DNA of 24,000 nt from Allorhizobium sonneratiae (GCF_023700755.1 NZ_JAMKOJ010000012.1:99492-123491); one strand, 5' to 3'; shown: positions 2,498 through 13,573, numbered from the stretch's first letter. Made by a program: numbers and translations. Notes: generated from the sequence alone by a model not told the origin.

Positions 2498-3100
2498 TTA
2501 CGCTTTAAATGTGCCTTCTGACGCAACGTCGGACAGCGGTTTGCGGCTGTTCGGCGTTTCCTTGGCTTGCAGGCCCTCAGGCAGAATAGACTTGTCGCCC
2601 ATCTTGCCGACAGCGATGGCAGCCTCGATCTTGTATTCCGAGGGCACGCCCATAACGGCGGCAGCCTTGTCAAAATCCACACCGGTCATGGCATGCGCAT
2701 GATAGCCGGAATGGATTGCCTGAAGCGCCATATAGCCCCAGGCTGCACCGGCATCGAAACTGTGGCTACGGGAGAGTTTGGGGGCGGAGCCATCGGCAGG
2801 ACGGCTGAGTGTATCGGAAATGACGAAGATCAGCGCCGAGGCATTCTTGGCCCAGCCCTGATTGAATTCGATCAGGGTTCCCAGCAAGGCGTCAAAATGC
2901 TTATCCCCCTTCAGCGCGTAGACGAAACGCCATGGCTGATAGTTGAAAGCGGAGGGGGCCCAGTGACCAGCTTCGATAATGGTCATCAACGTTGCGCGAT
3001 CCATCGCTTCGCCGGTAAAGGCGCGCGGTGACCAGCGATCAAGAAACATCGGGTGAATGGAATGGGTGGCGCTACGATTGTTGCTGTTCGTCATGATCAA
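2498..3100 (-). CDS. Nitroreductase-family (FMN-dependent) oxidoreductase
   Basis: 200-aa ORF. The N-terminal R-S-x-R-x-F type motif (DRWSPRAF) and the AGHWAPSAFNYQPWRF segment are typical of the nitroreductase fold. Stop TAA (reverse complement) at 2498-2500. Confidence 0.8.
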   Translation of the reverse strand: MIMTNSNNRSATHSIHPMFLDRWSPRAFTGEAMDRATLMTIIEAGHWAPSAFNYQPWRFVYALKGDKHFDALLGTLIEFNQGWAKNASALIFVISDTLSRPADGSAPKLSRSHSFDAGAAWGYMALQAIHSGYHAHAMTGVDFDKAAAVMGVPSEYKIEAAIAVGKMGDKSILPEGLQAKETPNSRKPLSDVASEGTFKA

Positions 3101-3583
3101 TCCTGATGTCTGTGTGAAAATTTGACTGGTGTTTCCAGGCTATCGACATAGCACGGCATATTGGAAACGCCAGCGGTGAACAATTCCGTTCTATCTGTTG
3201 CGGTGCAAAAATATGTGTCACAATTGTCTTAACGCCCAAAGTGAGGAGACGTTCCGGATGCGGGCAAGGACCCATGAATTCCAGAGCATCGTTCGACCAA
3301 TAGGCGGTGCCATTTCGATGAAATCAGGCCATGCTGTTATAGATTTGACAGCAAAGCCCCTAAGCTCTTCCGGTCAGTTTTTCTGTCAAGTATGTAGATA
3401 TGCTAATTTTGTTTTTACCACGGTCTTTGCTAGAAAAATTAATGGATTTCATGATCTAATCCGTGTGAGATGAACACAAATACATCGAATACGTTCAATC
3501 GCAGTTGAACTTTGTCTGGCTGTTTCGTTCCCAGGGATGTGAATGCGGCATTTCAGGGGGAGTGGAACAGGAAAGGAACCGAA

Positions 3584-4861
3584 ATGTTCTATCAGCTATA
3601 TGAAATGAACCATGCCGCTCTGGCCCCGTTCCGGATGGTGGCGGATGCCATGCAACTGGCCTTTCGCAACCCTCTCAATCCAATGTCCTACACCATGCTC
3701 GGGCGGACAGTGGCTGCCAGTTCCGAGGTTTTCGAACGCGCCACCCGTCATTACGGCAAGCCTGACTTCGGTCTGAAAACCACGATGGTGAATGGCGAGG
3801 CGGTACGGGTCAGCGAAAATGTCGTCTGGTCCAGACCCTTCTGCAATCTGCTCCATTTCAGCCGCGCGCTGAAATCGCCCCGCCCGGATGATCCGAAAAT
3901 TCTGGTGGTGGCTCCCATGTCGGGGCATTATGCCACGCTGCTGCGCGGCACCGTTGAAGCGCTTCTGCCCCATGCCGATGTCTATATCACGGACTGGATC
4001 GATGCGCGCATGGTGCCGGTCACGGAAGGCCGTTTCGATCTTGACGATTACATCGATTATGTCATCGACATGCTGCATTTCCTTGGTCCACGCACCAATG
4101 TGGTGGGTGTGTGCCAGCCTTCTGTGCCGGTTCTGGCCGCCGTTGCACGGATGGAGGCGGAAGGCGATGCTTCTTCGCCTTCCTCAATGACACTGATGGG
4201 CGGCCCGATCGATACCCGCATCAACCCGACTGCCGTTAACGAACTGGCCAAGACCAAGCCGATCGAATGGTTTGAAGACAATGTCATTATGACGGTTCCC
4301 TGGCCGCTGCCGGGCTTCATGCGCTCGGTCTATCCCGGTTTTCTGCAATTGTCCGGCTTCATGTCGATGAACCTCGACCGTCACATGATTGCCCAGAAGG
4401 ATTTCTTCGTTCATCTGGTGAAGAATGACGGTGAGCCGGCAGAAAAGCATCGTGAATTCTATGACGAATATCTCGCCGTCATGGATCTGACCGCAGAATT
4501 CTATCTGCAGACCGTCAAGACCGTGTTCATGGATCACGCCCTGCCGAAGGGGGAGATGATGCATCGGGACAAGCCCGTCGATCTTTCCGCGATCCGCAAT
4601 ACCGCGCTTTTGACGGTTGAAGGTGAAAACGACGATATTTCCGGCGTCGGCCAGACCAAGGCGGCCCAGACGCTTTGCGTCAATCTGCCGGATGACAAGC
4701 GGATGCATTACATGCAGCCCGATGTCGGTCATTATGGTGTGTTCAACGGTTCACGCTTCCGCCGCGAGATTGCGCCGCGCATCATTGCCTTTGCCAAGGA
4801 GCACTCCAAGGGCGAAAACCGCATTGTGACGCGGGTGATCAAGGGCGGAAAGTCCGCCTGA
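3584..4861 (+). CDS. phaZ: Intracellular polyhydroxybutyrate (PHB) depolymerase
   Basis: The ORF track starts at a TTG at 3512, but the canonical N-terminus MFYQLYEMNHAALAPFR begins at the ATG at 3584, preceded by aggaa. Its length (~425 aa) and overall sequence resemble the intracellular PhaZ family. Confidence 0.85.
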   Translation: MFYQLYEMNHAALAPFRMVADAMQLAFRNPLNPMSYTMLGRTVAASSEVFERATRHYGKPDFGLKTTMVNGEAVRVSENVVWSRPFCNLLHFSRALKSPRPDDPKILVVAPMSGHYATLLRGTVEALLPHADVYITDWIDARMVPVTEGRFDLDDYIDYVIDMLHFLGPRTNVVGVCQPSVPVLAAVARMEAEGDASSPSSMTLMGGPIDTRINPTAVNELAKTKPIEWFEDNVIMTVPWPLPGFMRSVYPGFLQLSGFMSMNLDRHMIAQKDFFVHLVKNDGEPAEKHREFYDEYLAVMDLTAEFYLQTVKTVFMDHALPKGEMMHRDKPVDLSAIRNTALLTVEGENDDISGVGQTKAAQTLCVNLPDDKRMHYMQPDVGHYGVFNGSRFRREIAPRIIAFAKEHSKGENRIVTRVIKGGKSA

Positions 4862-8303: not shown

Positions 8304-9143
8304 ATGACCGCACGTATGGACAAACGCTTTGCGGACCTGAAGGCCGAAGGCCGTCCGGCACTCGTCACCTATTTCATGGGGGGCGATCCGGATTTCGAAA
8401 CCTCGCTGGCGATCATGAAGGCCCTGCCGAAGGCAGGCTCCGATGTGATCGAGCTGGGCATGCCCTTTTCCGATCCGATGGCTGATGGCCCGGCCATTCA
8501 GCTCGCCGGTCAACGCGCGTTGAAAGCGGGCCAGACGCTGGCCAAGACACTGGATCTGGCGCGTAAATTCCGCGAAAGCGATCAGGATACGCCGATCGTG
8601 ATGATGGGATATTACAATCCCATCTATATCTATGGCGTTGAAAAATTCCTCGACGATGCGCTGGAAGCAGGCATTGACGGGCTGATCGTCGTCGATCTGC
8701 CGCCGGAAATGGATGATGAATTGTGCCTGCCGGCGCGCAGCCGCGACATTAATTTCATTCGCCTTGCCACGCCGACCACCGATGACAAGCGTCTGCCGAC
8801 GGTGCTGAAAAACACCTCCGGCTTTGTCTATTACGTGTCGATGAACGGGATTACCGGCTCGGCCTTGCCGGATCCGTCAAAGGTGTCGGCGGCGGTTTCT
8901 CGCATCAAGAGCCGTACGGATCTGCCGGTCTGCGTCGGCTTCGGGGTCAAGACGGCGGAGCATGCCAGGCTGATCGGCGCCAGCGCCGATGGCGTGGTGG
9001 TCGGCACCGCTATCGTTAACCAGGTGTCAATGAGCCTGACGAAAGACGGTCATGCCAGCGCCGATACGGTGGAAGCCGTGGCGACGCTGGTGCGTGGGCT
9101 TGCAGGCGGCGTGCGTGAAGCCCGCCTTGCCGCAGCGCAATAG
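8304..9143 (+). CDS. trpA: Tryptophan synthase alpha subunit
   Basis: Begins [29 protein letters not shown]. The [17 protein letters not shown] motif is present. ATG 8304 lies 1 nt after the trpB stop (8300-8302), so the ORF-track start at 8250 is an upstream in-frame extension. Confidence 0.95.
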
Positions 9144-9186
9144 TGCCTCTATCATCCGGCCATTGCAGACCAATGGAGTATTCAAA

Positions 9187-10083
9187 GTGAACTGGATTAC
9201 GAATTACGTTCGCCCGCGCATCAATTCCATGCTCGGCCGCCGCGAAGTCCCGGAAAATCTCTGGATCAAATGCCCGGAAACGGGTGAAATGGTCTTCCAC
9301 AAGGATCTGGAAGAAAACAAGTGGGTCATTCCCGCCTCCGGCTATCATATGAAAATGCCGGCCAAGGCCCGTCTTGCCGATCTTTTCGACAATGGCGACT
9401 ATGAAGCCCTGCCGCAGCCGAAAGTGGCGCAGGACCCGCTGAAATTCCGCGATTCCAAGCGCTATACCGACCGCCTCAAGGACAGCCGCCTCAAGACCGA
9501 GCAGGACGACACGATTGTCGCCGGTCTCGGTACGGTCAAAGGCGTCAAGCTGGTGGCCGTGGTGCATGAGTTCAATTTCATGGGTGGCTCGCTTGGGCTT
9601 GCAGCCGGTGAAGCCATCGTCAAGGCTTTCGAGCGGGCACTGAAGGAAAAATGCCCGCTGGTGATGTTCCCGGCCTCGGGCGGCGCGCGTATGCAGGAAG
9701 GCATTCTGTCGCTGATGCAGCTGCCGCGCACCACCGTTGCCGTCAACATGCTGAAGGAAGCGGGCCTGCCTTATATCGTCGTGCTGACCAACCCGACCAC
9801 GGGCGGCGTCACCGCTTCTTACGCCATGCTGGGCGACCTGCATATTGCCGAACCGGGTGCTGAAATCTGCTTTGCCGGCAAGCGCGTGATTGAACAGACC
9901 ATCCGCGAAAAGCTGCCGGAAGGCTTTCAGACCTCGGAATATCTGCTGGAACACGGCATGGTCGATATGGTCATCAGCCGTCATGAGATCCCCTCCACCT
10001 TGGCGCGGGTGTTGACGATCATGATGAAGCAACCGGCGATCTCGAAAGAAACCGCTCTGGCGCGGGTGCCGGACGCAGCCTGA
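9187..10083 (+). CDS. accD: Acetyl-CoA carboxylase carboxyltransferase beta subunit
   Basis: GTG at 9187 gives the N-terminus (M)[13 protein letters not shown] and is preceded by GGAG at 9175-9178. Carboxyltransferase motifs FMGGSLG and SGGARMQEG are present. The ORF-track start at 9052 overlaps trpA and is unlikely. Confidence 0.93.
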
Positions 10084-10176: not shown

Positions 10177-11520
10177 ATGCCAGACAGAGCCGCGAGCGAA
10201 GCCGAACAGGTCATCAATGCCTTGATGCGCCTTCATCCCAAAGGGTTCGATCTGGCGCTGGAGCGGATCAAAAGGCTGCTGGACAAGCTGGGCAATCCGC
10301 AGGACCGGCTGCCGCCGGTCATTCATGTGGCGGGCACCAATGGCAAGGGTTCGACCTCGGCCTTTTGCCGGGCGCTGCTGGAGGCGGCGGGGCTTGCCGT
10401 TCATGTTCACACCTCGCCGCATCTGGTCAACTGGCACGAGCGCTACCGCCTCGGCGTCAAGGGCAGAGCGGGCCATCTGGTGCAGGACAAGGTGCTGGCC
10501 GACGCATTGAACCGGGTGGCCGAGGTCAATGACGGTCAGCCGATCACCGTGTTCGAGCTGCTGACAGCGGCGGCCTTTCTCCTCTTTGCTGAACATCCCG
10601 CCGATGCGGTGATCATGGAGGTCGGGCTTGGCGGACGGCTGGACTGCACCAATGTCATCGATAAACCGGCCGTCTCGGTGATCATGCCGATTTCCTTCGA
10701 CCATCAGGCCTATCTCGGCGATACGGTGGAGCTGATCGCGGCGGAAAAGGCAGGCATCATGAAGCGCCATTGCCCGGTGGTGATCGGCCAGCAGGGTTTT
10801 GAGGAGGCGCGTGAGACGCTGATTGAAAAGGCGGAGCGGCTTTCCTGTCCGCTCTTCGTCTTCGGCCAGGATTATATCGCTTTCGAGGAACATGGGCGTC
10901 TTGTCTATCAGGATGAATTCGGCCTGATGGACCTGCCTTTGCCGCGCCTGCCGGGCCGCCACCAATATGCCAATGCCGCCGCCGCCATCCGGGCCGTGCG
11001 CGCCGCAGGTTTCACCGTCACCGAGGCCGTGGCGGAAAAGGCGATGCAGACGGTGGAATGGCCGGGACGGCTACAAAAACTCGTGAATGGCAATCTGATG
11101 ACCTATGCGCCGAATGACGCGGAAATCTGGGTCGATGGCGGCCACAATCCCGGTGCCGGCGAGGTGATCGCCGAGGCCATGGCCGGGTTTGAAGAACGCC
11201 AGCCGCGCCCGCTCTATCTCATCATCGGCATGCTGAACACCAAGGACCCTATTGGCTATTTCAAGGCCTTCGAGGGGCTGGCTGTCATGGCCTTCACCGT
11301 GCCGATCCGCGGCACGGACAATGCGCTGGACCCGGTGGTGCTGGCCAATGCCGCCTATGATGCCGGCGTCACGGCAGAGCCGGTCTCCTCCGTCGCCGAC
11401 GCACTCGCCGCCATCCGTGCCCGCGTCAAAGGTCAGCCCACGCCACCTCGCATTCTGATCGGCGGCTCACTCTATGTCGTCGGAAACGTGCTGGCGGATA
11501 ACGGCACGCCGCCGGTGTGA
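10177..11520 (+). CDS. folC: Bifunctional folylpolyglutamate synthase / dihydrofolate synthase
   Basis: Mur-ligase-type P-loop HVAGTNGKGST, an overall FolC-like sequence, and 447 aa. accD-folC adjacency is a common conserved pairing. Confidence 0.92.
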   Translation: MPDRAASEAEQVINALMRLHPKGFDLALERIKRLLDKLGNPQDRLPPVIHVAGTNGKGSTSAFCRALLEAAGLAVHVHTSPHLVNWHERYRLGVKGRAGHLVQDKVLADALNRVAEVNDGQPITVFELLTAAAFLLFAEHPADAVIMEVGLGGRLDCTNVIDKPAVSVIMPISFDHQAYLGDTVELIAAEKAGIMKRHCPVVIGQQGFEEARETLIEKAERLSCPLFVFGQDYIAFEEHGRLVYQDEFGLMDLPLPRLPGRHQYANAAAAIRAVRAAGFTVTEAVAEKAMQTVEWPGRLQKLVNGNLMTYAPNDAEIWVDGGHNPGAGEVIAEAMAGFEERQPRPLYLIIGMLNTKDPIGYFKAFEGLAVMAFTVPIRGTDNALDPVVLANAAYDAGVTAEPVSSVADALAAIRARVKGQPTPPRILIGGSLYVVGNVLADNGTPPV

Positions 11521-11559
11521 GTTTCTTATCGGGCAGGGATTGTCCGCAGGCGCTTTTAA

Positions 11560-11952
11560 ATGTCCTATAATAAATTAACGCCCCTTCGATTAGGTCCCTT
11601 GCCGATCGATAAGCTAAAAGATTTCGGTATTTTAACCCCGCCGGGAGAGGTCATCTTTACCGTTGCAGCTCAGAAACACGCCATAAAGGGCCATGCTGCC
11701 GAATTCGCCTTGTGTTTGCGCTATATTGAGCGAGCTGTTCAAACGCCAACCTATGTCGGTCAGGCTCCTCAACATAAGAATCTGGGTGTCGAACTGATTT
11801 ATGAGCATGTCGTGGATCGGGTCATTATCCTCGTTGCTGTTCATCTCGAACAGACGCCTGAAGGATTTTACATCGTCAAATCTACCTATCCGATTTCCAA
11901 AGATAAGCTGGAACGTCGGATTCGGAAAAAATTCCTGATGGCAACCCAATAA
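11560..11952 (+). CDS. Hypothetical 130-aa protein; putative stand-alone BECR-fold (PBECR-like) nuclease/toxin domain
   Basis: Clean ATG..TAA ORF in low-GC DNA, followed by a hairpin. The layout is VIFTVAAQKHAIKGHAAEF (H-x4-H), then YIERAVQTPTYVGQ, then beta-rich ILVAVHLEQTPEGFYIVKSTYPIS, then a basic tail. This resembles my recollection of phage/plasmid 'LTDERxxHIxExHP ... PDYI ... vvvv ... T.f' domains. The family call is by eye only. No clear SD, and the start is only 39 nt after the folC stop with no terminator between. Confidence 0.6.
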   Translation: MSYNKLTPLRLGPLPIDKLKDFGILTPPGEVIFTVAAQKHAIKGHAAEFALCLRYIERAVQTPTYVGQAPQHKNLGVELIYEHVVDRVIILVAVHLEQTPEGFYIVKSTYPISKDKLERRIRKKFLMATQ

Positions 11953-11987
11953 AAAACCCCGCTAGGAGCGGGGCCTTTATCAGTTTT
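11951..11987. terminator. Hairpin terminator at the ORF1 stop; its T-tract is better on the minus strand
   Basis: Stem ccccgc (11957-11962) pairs with gcgggg (11968-11973), loop tagga. On the + strand it is followed by cctttatcagtttt, a weak and interrupted T-tract. On the - strand the same hairpin is followed directly by T6 (complement of A6 at 11951-11956). Confidence 0.6.
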
Positions 11988-12076
11988 CGGCGGGTGCTAA
12001 AGTCCGCATCTCTTGGTCTTTCGACTACTGACCACTCTTGCGAATGGCGCGTGGGGAAGCCGTTCCCACCTCGAAA

Positions 12077-12100
12077 ACATGTCCTAAAGTTAGGACATGT
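12077..12100. repeat. Perfect 11-bp inverted repeat with 2-bp spacer (acatgtcctaa-ag-ttaggacatgt)
   Basis: Read directly from the sequence: arm 12077-12087 is the exact reverse complement of arm 12090-12100. On the - strand the hairpin is followed by tttt(c). The 8-mer ATGTCCTA of the left arm also occurs at 11560-11567, where it starts with the ORF1 ATG. Confidence 0.9.
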
Positions 12101-12181
12101 CTGGGCGTAAGTCAACGTTTCGTTGATTGCGAGGGGGAGAGCATGATTTCGTAAAGTTTGTGAATTTATAGCAACAAAATA

Positions 12182-12209
12182 TTGCAACCTATGATTTTTA
12201 AACTATTGT
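12182..12209 (+). promoter_or_regulatory. Candidate sigma70-like promoter that would give a leaderless ORF2 mRNA
   Basis: TTGCAA (12182-12187), a 16-nt spacer, then TATTGT (12204-12209). The ORF2 ATG at 12216 lies 7 nt downstream and has no SD. This is a weak by-eye match only. Confidence 0.2.
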
Positions 12210-12215
12210 TTTGGT

Positions 12216-12932
12216 ATGAAGAATCGCGATATCCCTGATGAGGATCTGCTTTATTTGGTCGGCATAACTGACAAAGAACGGTTTGATGCGGGAGACGACA
12301 TCAAGGAACGATCGTGGAGTGTGCCTCAAGCTGTTATGGAAAAGCTTGGTTATGGCGTCGGTTATGCGATTGCCGGACACGGAAAACCTGAAATACTTCA
12401 AAGAATTGAAGATGCATTTGCGTCGATTTACCGTAAGCAGGATATTGCGATGGGAGGTCACATTGGCGTTTTCATGTATCGGGATATTTTCGCACGTATC
12501 GGCGTTCCGTATGTGAATGGTGAGAAAGCCGTTAACCCTTTTGAGTGGGTCGAGCTTACTCCGGTTCAGCTTATGATTATTAAAACGGAACAAGAGGAAG
12601 TTCAGACTTTTTTTGATCAGTTTTTAGACATAGCCGACGTTCAATACGGGACGGAGGAATTAAAGGAGCCGTTTGTCAACAACGAGCTTGTTGTTCGTTT
12701 TATTGGTCTTTCGCGGCTACATCTGCATTCTGCATCTGCTGTTTTAACAGGTGGCTACGATTATCGAGGGGCCGTACAGAGTTCTCTTCTTGCCACCGAA
12801 TTGGTGCTAAAGTCCGGCGCTGCGGCGCTAGGCTTAAACGAAGCTCAAATTAAAGCGCAATTCAGTCACAACAATACTAAAATTGCTGATTATGTTTGGG
12901 AGAGATGGAAAACGTTCGACGGTGCCCGGTAA
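12216..12932 (+). CDS. Hypothetical protein: N-terminal domain of unknown function plus C-terminal HEPN-like helical domain (apparently truncated)
   Basis: 238-aa ORF in low-GC DNA with no Cys. The C-terminal third reads like helices 1-3 of a classical HEPN bundle: LSRLHLHSASAVLTGGYDYRGAVQSSLLATELVLKSGAAALGL....FSHNNTKIADYV. Compare the pattern A..ll..g.y..av...y.A.E.alKa.l...g.....tH.l..L. The ORF stops (TAA 12930-12932) before the expected fourth helix. Confidence 0.65.
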   Translation: MKNRDIPDEDLLYLVGITDKERFDAGDDIKERSWSVPQAVMEKLGYGVGYAIAGHGKPEILQRIEDAFASIYRKQDIAMGGHIGVFMYRDIFARIGVPYVNGEKAVNPFEWVELTPVQLMIIKTEQEEVQTFFDQFLDIADVQYGTEELKEPFVNNELVVRFIGLSRLHLHSASAVLTGGYDYRGAVQSSLLATELVLKSGAAALGLNEAQIKAQFSHNNTKIADYVWERWKTFDGAR

Positions 12933-13120
12933 AGCGAGTCATTGAGACACAGCCTTCCTACACGCGCAACAGATACTCGGCCACACAACCCAATCGAAGA
13001 GATGTCGGTCATCTTGTTATGGGCGCTCAATACATTGTGTCGGAGGTTGTTAGGCAGATGTCAGACCGAAATTTCAGAAATGATACTCAGCCGTCTATGC
13101 CGCGACGCTATCCTGCGTAA
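12896..13120 (+). pseudogene. -1-frame continuation of the HEPN-like gene (frameshifted 3' segment)
   Basis: The frame-2 ORF overlaps the end of ORF2. It encodes PVKRVIETQPSYTRNRYSATQPNRRDVGHLVMGAQYIVSEVVRQM, which fits the '...Y..RY...' segment plus the last amphipathic helix of HEPN domains. It is Cys-free like ORF2 beyond the possible junction window 12890-12930 (one Cys codon at 12923-12925 falls inside that window). It ends at TAA 13118-13120, 22 nt before the terminator. This frame has a stop at 12887-12889, so any junction must lie in 12890-12930. Confidence 0.5.
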
Positions 13121-13142
13121 CTAAGCATTTAAGCACCAAAAC

Positions 13143-13170
13143 AAAAAAGCCCGGCAGAACCGGGCTCTTT
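13143..13170. terminator. Bidirectional terminator (strong for trxA on the - strand; also closes the islet on the + strand)
   Basis: Stem gcccgg (13149-13154) pairs with ccgggc (13160-13165), loop cagaa. The A6 run at 13143-13148 gives a T6 run after the hairpin on the - strand. On the + strand the hairpin is followed by tcttt. Confidence 0.8.
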
Positions 13171-13194
13171 GCAATCAACCTTTTGCCGCTCCAC

Positions 13195-13515
13195 TCACGC
13201 AGCGCCGGAAATCCAGCTTGTCAGCGCCGTCTTCGGGGCGGCACCGACCTTGATATCGGCAACTTCACCGCCCTTGAACATGGCCAGTGTCGGGATGGAG
13301 CGCACGCCGAATTTGGCGGCGAGTTCCGGGTTTTCGTCAATGTTGAGCTTGGCGATCTTGACCTTGCCGTTCATTTCATTGGCGATTTCGTCGAGGGCGG
13401 GGGCGATCATCTTGCACGGGCCGCACCATTCCGCCCAGAAATCCACGACGACAGGCTGGGAGGACTGGAGAACTTCTGCCTCGAAATTGGACGTATCGAC
13501 TTTTACGGTAGCCAT
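13195..13515 (-). CDS. trxA: Thioredoxin
   Basis: Begins MATVKV, has the active site WAEWCGPCK, and is 106 aa. ATG at 13513-13515 is preceded by AAGGAG with a 6-nt spacing. The ORF-track start at 13548 is an upstream extension. Confidence 0.95.
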
Positions 13516-13573
13516 AGGCTGCTCCTTGGAGGAAAGTGTCTGTGACACATATATGATGGTTATGGATCAGATT

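Follow-up and report, generated by a model that had tools for sequence, protein, structure and literature searches.

The PBECR2 and PBECR3 families (PF18810 and PF18812; Iyer, Burroughs, Anand, de Souza and Aravind, 2017, PMC5512222) are built on the BECR core, in which a helix is followed by four strands and the active site consists of a His residue carried by the N-terminal helix plus a C-terminal Ser or Thr residue. Solo forms of these domains are already known from phages and mobile elements, host mRNA or CRISPR RNA have been proposed as their targets, and no associated RNA is mentioned in the work that described them. The skipping-rope RNA (Rfam RF02924), catalogued in the same year, belongs to the small number of widespread RNAs of bacteria and phages that are conserved in a way suggestive of a sophisticated biochemical role. 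Weinberg et al. (2017; NAR 45:10811, PMC5737381) reported its "compelling association" with a single protein domain, whichever the orientation, and did not find self-cleavage; no functional study later than this one was found in the searchable literature. Here we describe a locus where the two stand side by side. It lies in a stretch of 24,000 nucleotides (nt) from Allorhizobium sonneratiae (GCF_023700755.1, NZ_JAMKOJ010000012.1:99492-123491), the whole of which is referred to below as the window and from whose first letter all positions are counted, and it takes up the left part of a low-GC islet (11521-13142) between folC and trxA with two open reading frames, ORF1 and ORF2. We show that ORF1, which sequence profiles and a structural model identify as a borderline-scoring solo PBECR3-type domain, and a skipping-rope RNA encoded next to it are a strictly coupled unit, and we tentatively propose that the RNA is the antidote of the predicted ORF1 nuclease.

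ORF1 and the skipping-rope RNA as a coupled unit

The RNA gene lies between ORF1 and ORF2 on the minus strand (11978..12083), where an Rfam scan revealed it; the first-pass annotation of the islet had missed it. A skipping-rope RNA is found at 12 of 12 distinct loci of the ORF1 family in Alphaproteobacteria, that is, in the window and at 11 others (L013/14, L015, L016, L074, L075, L076, L078/79, L080, L081, L082, and L083, with L075 on the same contig as L022 and L077 and counted once). The protein identity of ORF1 across these linked loci ranges from 82% down to 36%. At every locus the RNA is convergent with the protein gene, and it is located 22-33 nt past the stop codon in all except L082 (110 nt), which has a truncated gene of 103 amino acids. 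The ORF1-homologue loci that were tested first all gave Rfam matches (47.5-50.8 bits), and R1, our own covariance model built on 17 Rfam-confirmed sequences, finds the RNA at all of the further loci. When the window is compared by blastn with the ORF1-homologue loci, positions 11560-12082 are recovered as a single block of ∼77% identity, in which nucleotide homology starts at the ATG of ORF1 (11560) and ends at the 5′ end of the RNA (12079-12082). The block resides in very different hosts, including a plasmid region with relaxase, PemK and DUF6118 genes, a megaplasmid conflict island, Sinorhizobium symbiotic plasmids, a prophage, and a chromosomal site beside gyrB, and no protein-coding neighbor conserved across the ORF1-family loci was found. 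Four Sinorhizobium plasmids carry it in PLSDB, where it is therefore rare, and blastn did not detect it in the phage GenBank set.

The loss of the two components is asymmetric. The RNA occurs without the protein on several phage contigs and on the S. fredii plasmid pSfreNXT3b (L090, NZ_CP024309.1 377075-383182), where it is kept at 90% identity (3001-3108) and an IS110 transposase occupies the position of ORF1, whereas no ORF1-family gene without the RNA was seen among the 12 distinct loci. The same S. fredii region encodes a 435-amino-acid protein annotated as "HEPN domain-containing protein" ∼3 kb from the orphan RNA. An upstream protein antitoxin for ORF1 was considered and rejected, as the only candidate, an upstream ORF of 96 amino acids, is common only to the closely related L078 and L080. 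In that Novosphingopyxis-type subclade the ORF (L078, 2701-2991; L080, 981-1271) has no Pfam match and ends 10 nt before the PBECR gene, and it may be an additional protein partner there.

ORF1 itself (11560..11952, plus strand) encodes 130 amino acids, and its product is identical to NCBI protein NAC44_19015 of Allorhizobium sp. BGMRC 0089. It is matched by Pfam PBECR3 (E 5.8e-6, 26.6 bits, so that the gathering score of 30 is not reached) and by PBECR2 (E 1.4e-3), and many of its homologues (n = 19) have a precomputed PF18812 assignment. Residues Q38, H40, H45, G67, Q68, and E78 are invariant in the family alignment and S108 is nearly so. The AlphaFold model of ORF1 (predicted local distance difference test, pLDDT, 91.6) has a long helix (35-61) and four strands (65-67, 76-83, 88-95, and 103-111), with K39-H40 within the helix and S108-T109 on the last strand, and a Lys-His pattern for PBECR3 has also been remarked on in a 2026 preprint. 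In a Foldseek search of BFVD this model matched polyvalent, MuF-C, and minor capsid proteins of phages in their PBECR-bearing parts (probability 1.0, template-modelling (TM) score 0.60-0.69). The model and these matches thus have the fold of PBECR3, and H40 in the helix together with the C-terminal S108/T109 corresponds to the PBECR active site. The earlier suggestion, made by eye, that ORF1 is a stand-alone PBECR-type BECR domain is borne out by the PBECR3 profile, by the PF18812 assignments of its relatives, and by the BFVD matches. The predicted active-site pattern is complete, and ORF1 is presumably an RNase and toxic. Searches of the PADLOC defense models matched neither ORF1 nor ORF2 (nor an ORF of Agrobacterium vitis that is discussed below), those of NCBIfam matched none of the islet ORFs, sequence-profile searches of the PDB gave no match, and PHROGs yielded a single unknown-function family at E 1.5e-3. 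ORF1 lacks a recognizable Shine-Dalgarno (SD) sequence and so does ORF2, as the first-pass annotation had noted, and weak translation signals are common to the whole ORF1 family.

The RNA is a member of RF02924. The Rfam match (12079..11982) covers the full model (1-80) at 48.5 bits (E 1e-10) against a gathering score of 36.7, and with R1 the window RNA scores 75.4 bits, as high as its relatives. In the cmscan alignment the consensus architecture is evident, with an outer stem (P1) round hairpin 1, a variable middle hairpin, and hairpin 2, and with the conserved GAGG..GGAA and AGAGAUGC segments, and the minimum free energy (MFE) fold of 12083-11950 gives this same Rfam architecture (z -2.8). 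The middle hairpin is doubled in the alphaproteobacterial clade. In an alignment of 29 RNAs, which was fitted to the model so that the structure is somewhat favored, 93% of the cells are paired, 15 of 18 pairs show compensatory changes, and the covariation is 0.62 as compared with 0.18 after shuffling and 0.10-0.14 in slid controls. Other Rfam matches in the region (sroD, PrrF, and the Trp and Leu leaders) are far under threshold and were dismissed.

A Rho-independent terminator at the 3′ end is also a feature of RF02924, and here it takes the form of a bidirectional intrinsic hairpin (CCCCGC-loop-GCGGGG, 11955..11976; terminator scan and MFE fold) that is common to ORF1 and the RNA. On the minus strand the terminator (11969-11956) is followed by TTTTTTATT, a U tract that overlaps the stop codon of ORF1, and hence the hairpin serves both genes. 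An equivalent hairpin is found in all 12 alphaproteobacterial loci. Upstream of the RNA a putative promoter can be read from the sequence (12088..12116, minus strand), with GTTGAC at 12116-12111, a 17-nt spacer, CTAACT at 12093-12088, and a +1 near 12083-12080. It was not called by a generic sigma-70 scan of the region. In 8 of the 12 loci TTGAC-N17-CTATAT-like boxes precede the RNA by the same distance, within flanking DNA that is otherwise unrelated. Taken together, the predicted nuclease and the RNA make up a minimal, strictly linked pair, a 130-amino-acid protein and a ∼130-nt RNA in ∼520 bp, which is present in culturable Rhizobiales and provides a handle on an orphan RNA class.

The association extends to loci that are not alphaproteobacterial. 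When viral contigs were searched with a sequence pattern, 57 candidates emerged, which inspection reduced to ∼20 distinct skipping-rope-like RNAs, most of them confirmed by Rfam. In those Firmicutes and phage contigs that show a neighboring gene, the RNA is often found right against the 3′ end of a region that encodes PBECR. It is co-directional with a solo PBECR3 gene (67 bits) in L034, with the gene for a 258-amino-acid protein with a C-terminal PBECR2 domain (55 bits) in L029, and, at 52 nt, with a solo PBECR3/2 gene of a Sporolactobacillus prophage (L089). It is convergent, at about 18-24 nt, with genes for MuF/Phage_min_cap2 minor capsid proteins in L028, L041, L053, and L060, where the PBECR-like C-terminal ∼125 residues score 81-97 bits with a local hidden Markov model and where the RNAs are diverged variants (27-36 bits with R1 and below the Rfam threshold). 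No protein gene intervenes between the RNA and the PBECR-coding region at these linked loci. The gene of one recurrent domain that is found near RF02924 in either orientation is therefore of the PBECR2/3 type in the 12 ORF1-family loci and in seven others. A homology search with the L034 protein found three relatives only, and when the L034 and L060 domains were run as single proteins against the viral contigs, nothing but the query was recovered.

Some of the phage loci have features of their own. The diverged variant (GAGGTGGGAAG.C.CCCCCCACGCCC...AGAGATGC; 26.8 bits in Rfam) is found in L028 (2546-2630), L053 (918-1012), and L060 (4498-4614), always converging on MuF genes with a PBECR-like C-terminus, and it may deserve a separate model. 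L041 has two skipping-rope-type RNAs in tandem on the plus strand, a diverged one and a canonical one (827-913 and 997-1101), just before the 3′ end of the MuF gene with the PBECR-like tail, and L060 also carries a GP20-b RNA (4295-4355).

Possible roles of the RNA

In polymorphic-toxin cassettes the immunity gene sits 3′ of the region that encodes the toxin domain. Positions 11560-12083 very probably make up a compact two-component module of ∼520 bp in which the gene for a solo PBECR3-type predicted endoribonuclease is met by a convergent, separately transcribed skipping-rope RNA of ∼130 nt, with the bidirectional terminator serving both. We propose that the two are cognate partners and that the highly structured RNA would bind and neutralize the nuclease, perhaps as a pseudosubstrate, and would in this way take the role that is held by an immunity or antitoxin protein for other BECR toxins. 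Such a logic would be like that of a type III toxin-antitoxin pair, without membership in that class. The case for an antidote is made by analogy, from the fact that the RNA holds the position of an immunity gene, that there is no protein partner, and that the loss of the two components is asymmetric, and it is also consistent with the retention by ORF1 of the His-in-helix and C-terminal Ser/Thr pattern of PBECR. We regard an inhibitory role as quite possible, while holding to it only tentatively. Rather more doubtful is the extension by which one RNA would neutralize both solo PBECR toxins and the PBECR tails of phage MuF and polyvalent proteins and so represent a kind of RNA antitoxin apart from types I and III.

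Several points weigh against this proposal. The 26.6 bits of ORF1 in the window lie under the 30-bit PBECR3 gathering score of Pfam, and Foldseek comparison of the ORF1 model with the PDB gave no significant BECR match (best E 0.3, with HigB, MqsR, and CdiA-CT near E 1). The toxicity of ORF1, its RNase activity, and its binding to the RNA are predictions, and the protein may be poorly expressed here because it is without an SD sequence or a promoter of its own. Four distinct phage- or plasmid-like contigs (L018, L039, L056, and L071) carry the RNA and have no PBECR2/3-like domain within 1.5-4 kb, with both flanks visible; in L018 the context is relaxase/TrbC, and in L039 the RNA lies between the terminase and a P22-like portal gene. 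In addition, the RNA of a 158-kb phage contig (L024, 883-966, minus strand) is inside an array of tRNA genes on the same strand (974-1120, 1636-1712, and 2467-2642). The RNA can thus act at a distance from a PBECR encoded in cis, or with none. Finally, the nucleotides of the RNA are nearly invariant across phyla, whereas its partner proteins diverge to <25% identity. More variation than this would be expected of an inhibitor that co-evolves, and hence an RNA with its own tertiary fold, or one that mimics a conserved cellular RNA, would fit better.

It is this conservation, with a multi-stem junction typical of RNAs that have a function of their own (cf. Weinberg et al., 2017, PMC5737381), that makes a role as substrate, cofactor, or cargo the strongest competitor. 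PBECR would then process or bind the RNA, and the activity would reside in the RNA or ribonucleoprotein so formed, which could act on host or rival RNAs or on defense systems or be packaged with the MuF head proteins. That the RNA turns up among phage late genes and within a tRNA array, with no PBECR neighbor, would be understandable on these terms, and inactive PBECR/MuF-C versions are noted to be probably only RNA-binding (Iyer et al., 2017, PMC5512222). The predicted active site of ORF1 is complete, however, the strict position of the RNA at the 3′ end of the sequence for the toxin domain resembles that in immunity cassettes, and the existence of RNA-only loci where protein-only loci have not been seen is not what this would lead one to expect. 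Hence we judge a substrate or cofactor role to be unlikely, if still a serious contender.

A less probable reading again is that the islet is decaying cargo that has no present function, ORF2 being a pseudogene and ORF1 and the RNA silent remnants. ORF2 has a frameshift, ORF1 has neither an SD sequence nor its own promoter, and the -10 box of the RNA (CTAACT) is weaker than those of its relatives. ORF1 is nevertheless of full length and keeps every family-invariant residue, the RNA scores like its relatives (75 bits) with its terminator intact, and the weak translation signals are those of the ORF1 family as a whole, all of which make this reading rather improbable.

We also considered a type I-like, cis-antisense mechanism in which the 3′ end of the RNA would pair with that of the ORF1 mRNA and cause its decay or block read-through. 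The geometry for this is present in all 12 alphaproteobacterial loci, which are convergent, and the terminator U tract overlies the ORF1 stop codon. In L029, L034, and L089, however, the RNA is co-directional and downstream, where antisense pairing is impossible, and this excludes it as a general mechanism. Moreover, the conserved nucleotides are in the structured body of the RNA and outside the overlap, and ORF1 is not a small hydrophobic peptide, such that we consider cis-antisense control very improbable.

Were the RNA indeed to neutralize the nuclease, one could understand how PBECR nucleases are tolerated by the phages and plasmids that encode them, and an orphan class of RNA, known since 2017, would gain a function.

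ORF2 and the history of the folC-trxA junction

The islet stands out from its surroundings in composition, as the first-pass annotation had reported. Its GC content is 0.463 versus 0.602 for the rest of the window, below any of 383 other segments of equal length (lowest 0.525, mean 0.601, standard deviation 0.032), and the five counts originally made by hand (67, 65, 47, 40, and 33%) were all matched exactly. The GC content at third codon positions is 0.47 in ORF1 and 0.43 in ORF2 versus 0.76 in folC and 0.73 in trxA. The flanking genes accD (9052-10083), folC (10177-11520, plus strand), trxA (13195-13548, minus strand), and addA are identified by NCBIfam equivalog or subfamily models, and the islet is bounded on the right by the trxA terminator (13144..13170, minus strand; terminator scan), a stem of 12 pairs followed by a T run. 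On the left, the statement that there is no terminator between folC and ORF1 was slightly too strong, because a weak terminator-like hairpin (11505-11519; 6-bp stem and poor T tract in the terminator scan) overlaps the folC stop codon; it might lower read-through from folC into ORF1. A repeat search found no direct repeats or att-like sites of at least 10 nt flanking the islet, and the islet contains no integrase, transposase, or minimal nucleotidyltransferase (MNT) gene, in agreement with the initial reading.

Shorter repeats are present at the ends of the ORF1-RNA block. An 8-nt direct repeat, ATGTCCTA, is found at 11560-11567 and 12079-12086, which may be chance. A perfect 11-nt palindrome, ACATGTCCTAA/TTAGGACATGT, covers the +1 and -10 region of the RNA (12077..12100, repeat search) in the window and not in the related loci, and one of its arms contains the second copy of ATGTCCTA. 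The repeat and the palindrome could be a junction scar, an operator, or a chance occurrence.

The second gene of the islet, ORF2, is frameshifted. Its first 238 codons (12216..12932, plus strand) encode an N-terminal domain and the first HEPN-like helices, in a product identical to NCBI protein NAC44_19020, and alignment with the A. vitis gene shows that one base is missing from an Arg codon at 12927-12929. The C-terminal 63 codons are out of frame (12929..13120, plus strand), where tblastn with P0004 finds a second-frame match of 81% identity, and they encode the NRY and Rx4H (RRDVGH) motif of the HEPN-like domain. When repaired, ORF2 has 301 residues, which matches its relatives of ∼300. The family has a single architecture of about that length, no Pfam domain, and 355 clusters at 50% identity, mostly from Alphaproteobacteria, and helices alone make up the model of the A. 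vitis homologue (pLDDT 82.4). The family has an Rx4H motif, within the Rx4-6H pattern of HEPN proteins, where the last long helix (261-282) begins, with R261 invariant and H266 almost so; in the window it is past the frameshift. Pfam HEPN (PF05168) is matched below threshold only, by 6 of 10 distant and 2 of 28 close relatives of ORF2, and Foldseek comparison of the family with the PDB gave weak matches to Csm6, 2q00, and 4nqf, none at the curated threshold. Since Rx4H is at the hallmark position, and with the sub-threshold PF05168 and weak Foldseek matches, ORF2 likely consists of an N-terminal domain of ∼150 residues and a HEPN-like half, much as had been suggested at the outset, where HEPN-like is not to be taken as proven. 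The frameshift removes the Rx4H helix, and ORF2 is therefore probably inactive in the window unless the deletion is an assembly error.

The ORF2 family is sporadic, alphaproteobacterial, and found in variable or defense-island contexts. No conserved neighbor was found for its homologues in 12 genome loci, most of which are of lower GC content than their flanks, and with no MNT partner in the window either, an MNT-HEPN toxin-antitoxin system was ruled out. In A. fabrum (L084, CP169714.1, 3541-5903) the ORF2 homologue is near an integrase and a resolvase and overlaps the end of a SMODS and SLATT_4 gene pair by 11 nt, and it may be in an operon with this nucleotide-signaling system, but such neighbors are seen in only 1 of 14 loci, and SMODS-SLATT was rejected as a conserved partner. 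In another genome the homologue is next to an orphan BrnA antitoxin and a HerA-like ATPase. The skipping-rope RNA was likewise rejected as a partner of ORF2, being found at 0 of 14 ORF2 loci (Rfam at gathering score and R1 at E ≤ 1). An exact 14-nt repeat, GGTGCTAAAGTCCG, at 11993-12006 and 12803-12816 makes the hairpin-2 loop of the RNA perfectly complementary to the conserved LVLKSG codons of the ORF2 mRNA. S. americanum (L016), which has no ORF2, has this RNA loop as well, and the complementarity is therefore probably a coincidence.

The islet had been interpreted as an insertion into the tail-to-tail junction of folC and trxA. Its foreign composition and its location there are confirmed, but a single insertion is contradicted by A. 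vitis NCPPB 3554 (L001), which has an ORF2 homologue beside trxA without ORF1. In that strain 82% nucleotide identity to the window is continuous from 12203 to 13563, through trxA, and the DNA between folC and the ORF2 homologue is unrelated. In place of ORF1 and the RNA it contains (2651-3987) GC-rich repeats similar to repetitive extragenic palindromic (REP) elements and a high-GC ORF (3082-3759) that has no Pfam or PADLOC match. As A. vitis has different content after folC, the folC-trxA junction is a variable spot, and as it has ORF2 there without ORF1, ORF2 is the older resident and ORF1 with its RNA a separate arrival or replacement.

The idea from which this work started, namely that ORF1 (BECR) and ORF2 (HEPN) are a single undescribed two-gene system that was inserted as a unit, accords with their adjacency, common strand, low GC content, and RNase-type folds of conflict systems, but it was rejected, on a criterion that the first-pass annotation had itself set, because the families co-occur in none of 25 other loci (0 of 14 ORF2-family loci with a relative of ORF1 and 0 of 11 ORF1-family loci with a relative of ORF2, by tblastn within flanks of 1-5 kb), and with ORF2 having no conserved neighbor, being present at the A. 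vitis junction without ORF1, being frameshifted, and being separated from ORF1 by a terminator and a divergently oriented RNA gene, we give it almost no credence. Rather, the islet is very probably a small variable spot with two independent, horizontally acquired conflict-type elements, of which ORF1 and the RNA are one and ORF2 the other. This is a caution for genome annotation, as neighboring low-GC, toxin-like ORFs are not necessarily a system and non-coding partners are easily overlooked.

Comparison with known systems

Neither half of the ORF1-RNA pair falls outside families that were catalogued in 2017. The RNA agrees with RF02924 in score, stems, conserved nucleotides, 3′ Rho-independent terminator, and a neighboring gene of one recurrent domain, and the alphaproteobacterial clade differs from the rest of the family in its enlarged or doubled middle hairpin and its fixed convergent layout 22-33 nt from the partner gene. 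ORF1 is a borderline member of PBECR3 that has the same profile, predicted fold, and active-site pattern as PBECR2/PBECR3, and it differs in being a chromosomal solo copy, outside a phage or type IV secretion system context, that scores below the Pfam threshold. ORF2 resembles the HEPN RNases (PF05168, MNT-HEPN, Csm6/Csx1, and Abi HEPN) in its predicted helical bundle, in the Rx4H motif at the start of the last helix, and in its sporadic low-GC, island-like contexts, but it has neither an MNT partner nor a CARF domain, and its N-terminal domain of ∼150 residues contains a GGHxGVFMxRDxF motif.

The proposed logic of the ORF1-RNA pair would be the same as in the type III toxin-antitoxin systems (ToxIN, CptIN, and TenpIN), where an endoribonuclease toxin is curbed by an adjacent structured RNA and a terminator lies between the genes. 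The type III antitoxins, however, are tandem repeats located upstream of a toxin of another fold, in the same operon, and they are processed by the toxin, whereas the skipping-rope RNA is single and non-repetitive, is downstream in a convergent or co-directional orientation, and has its own putative promoter. With no tandem repeats and a single-copy RNA downstream of the gene, membership in type III is ruled out. Type I is ruled out as well, as ORF1 is modeled as a soluble alpha/beta domain of 130 residues and the co-directional layouts preclude obligatory antisense pairing.

There is also a parallel with the polymorphic and MuF toxin cassettes (Zhang et al., 2012, PMC3482391; Jamet et al., 2017, PMC5576092), in which a variable C-terminal RNase domain is followed directly by its cognate partner locus. 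The PBECR-RNA loci are similar, in that the same domain is found both in solo form and fused to MuF, and they differ in that the partner locus is an RNA rather than a protein, for which an immunity function is proposed. If this function is correct, the skipping-rope RNA would add an RNA-based form of immunity to those known for BECR toxins and would be the first for a polymorphic or polyvalent toxin domain.

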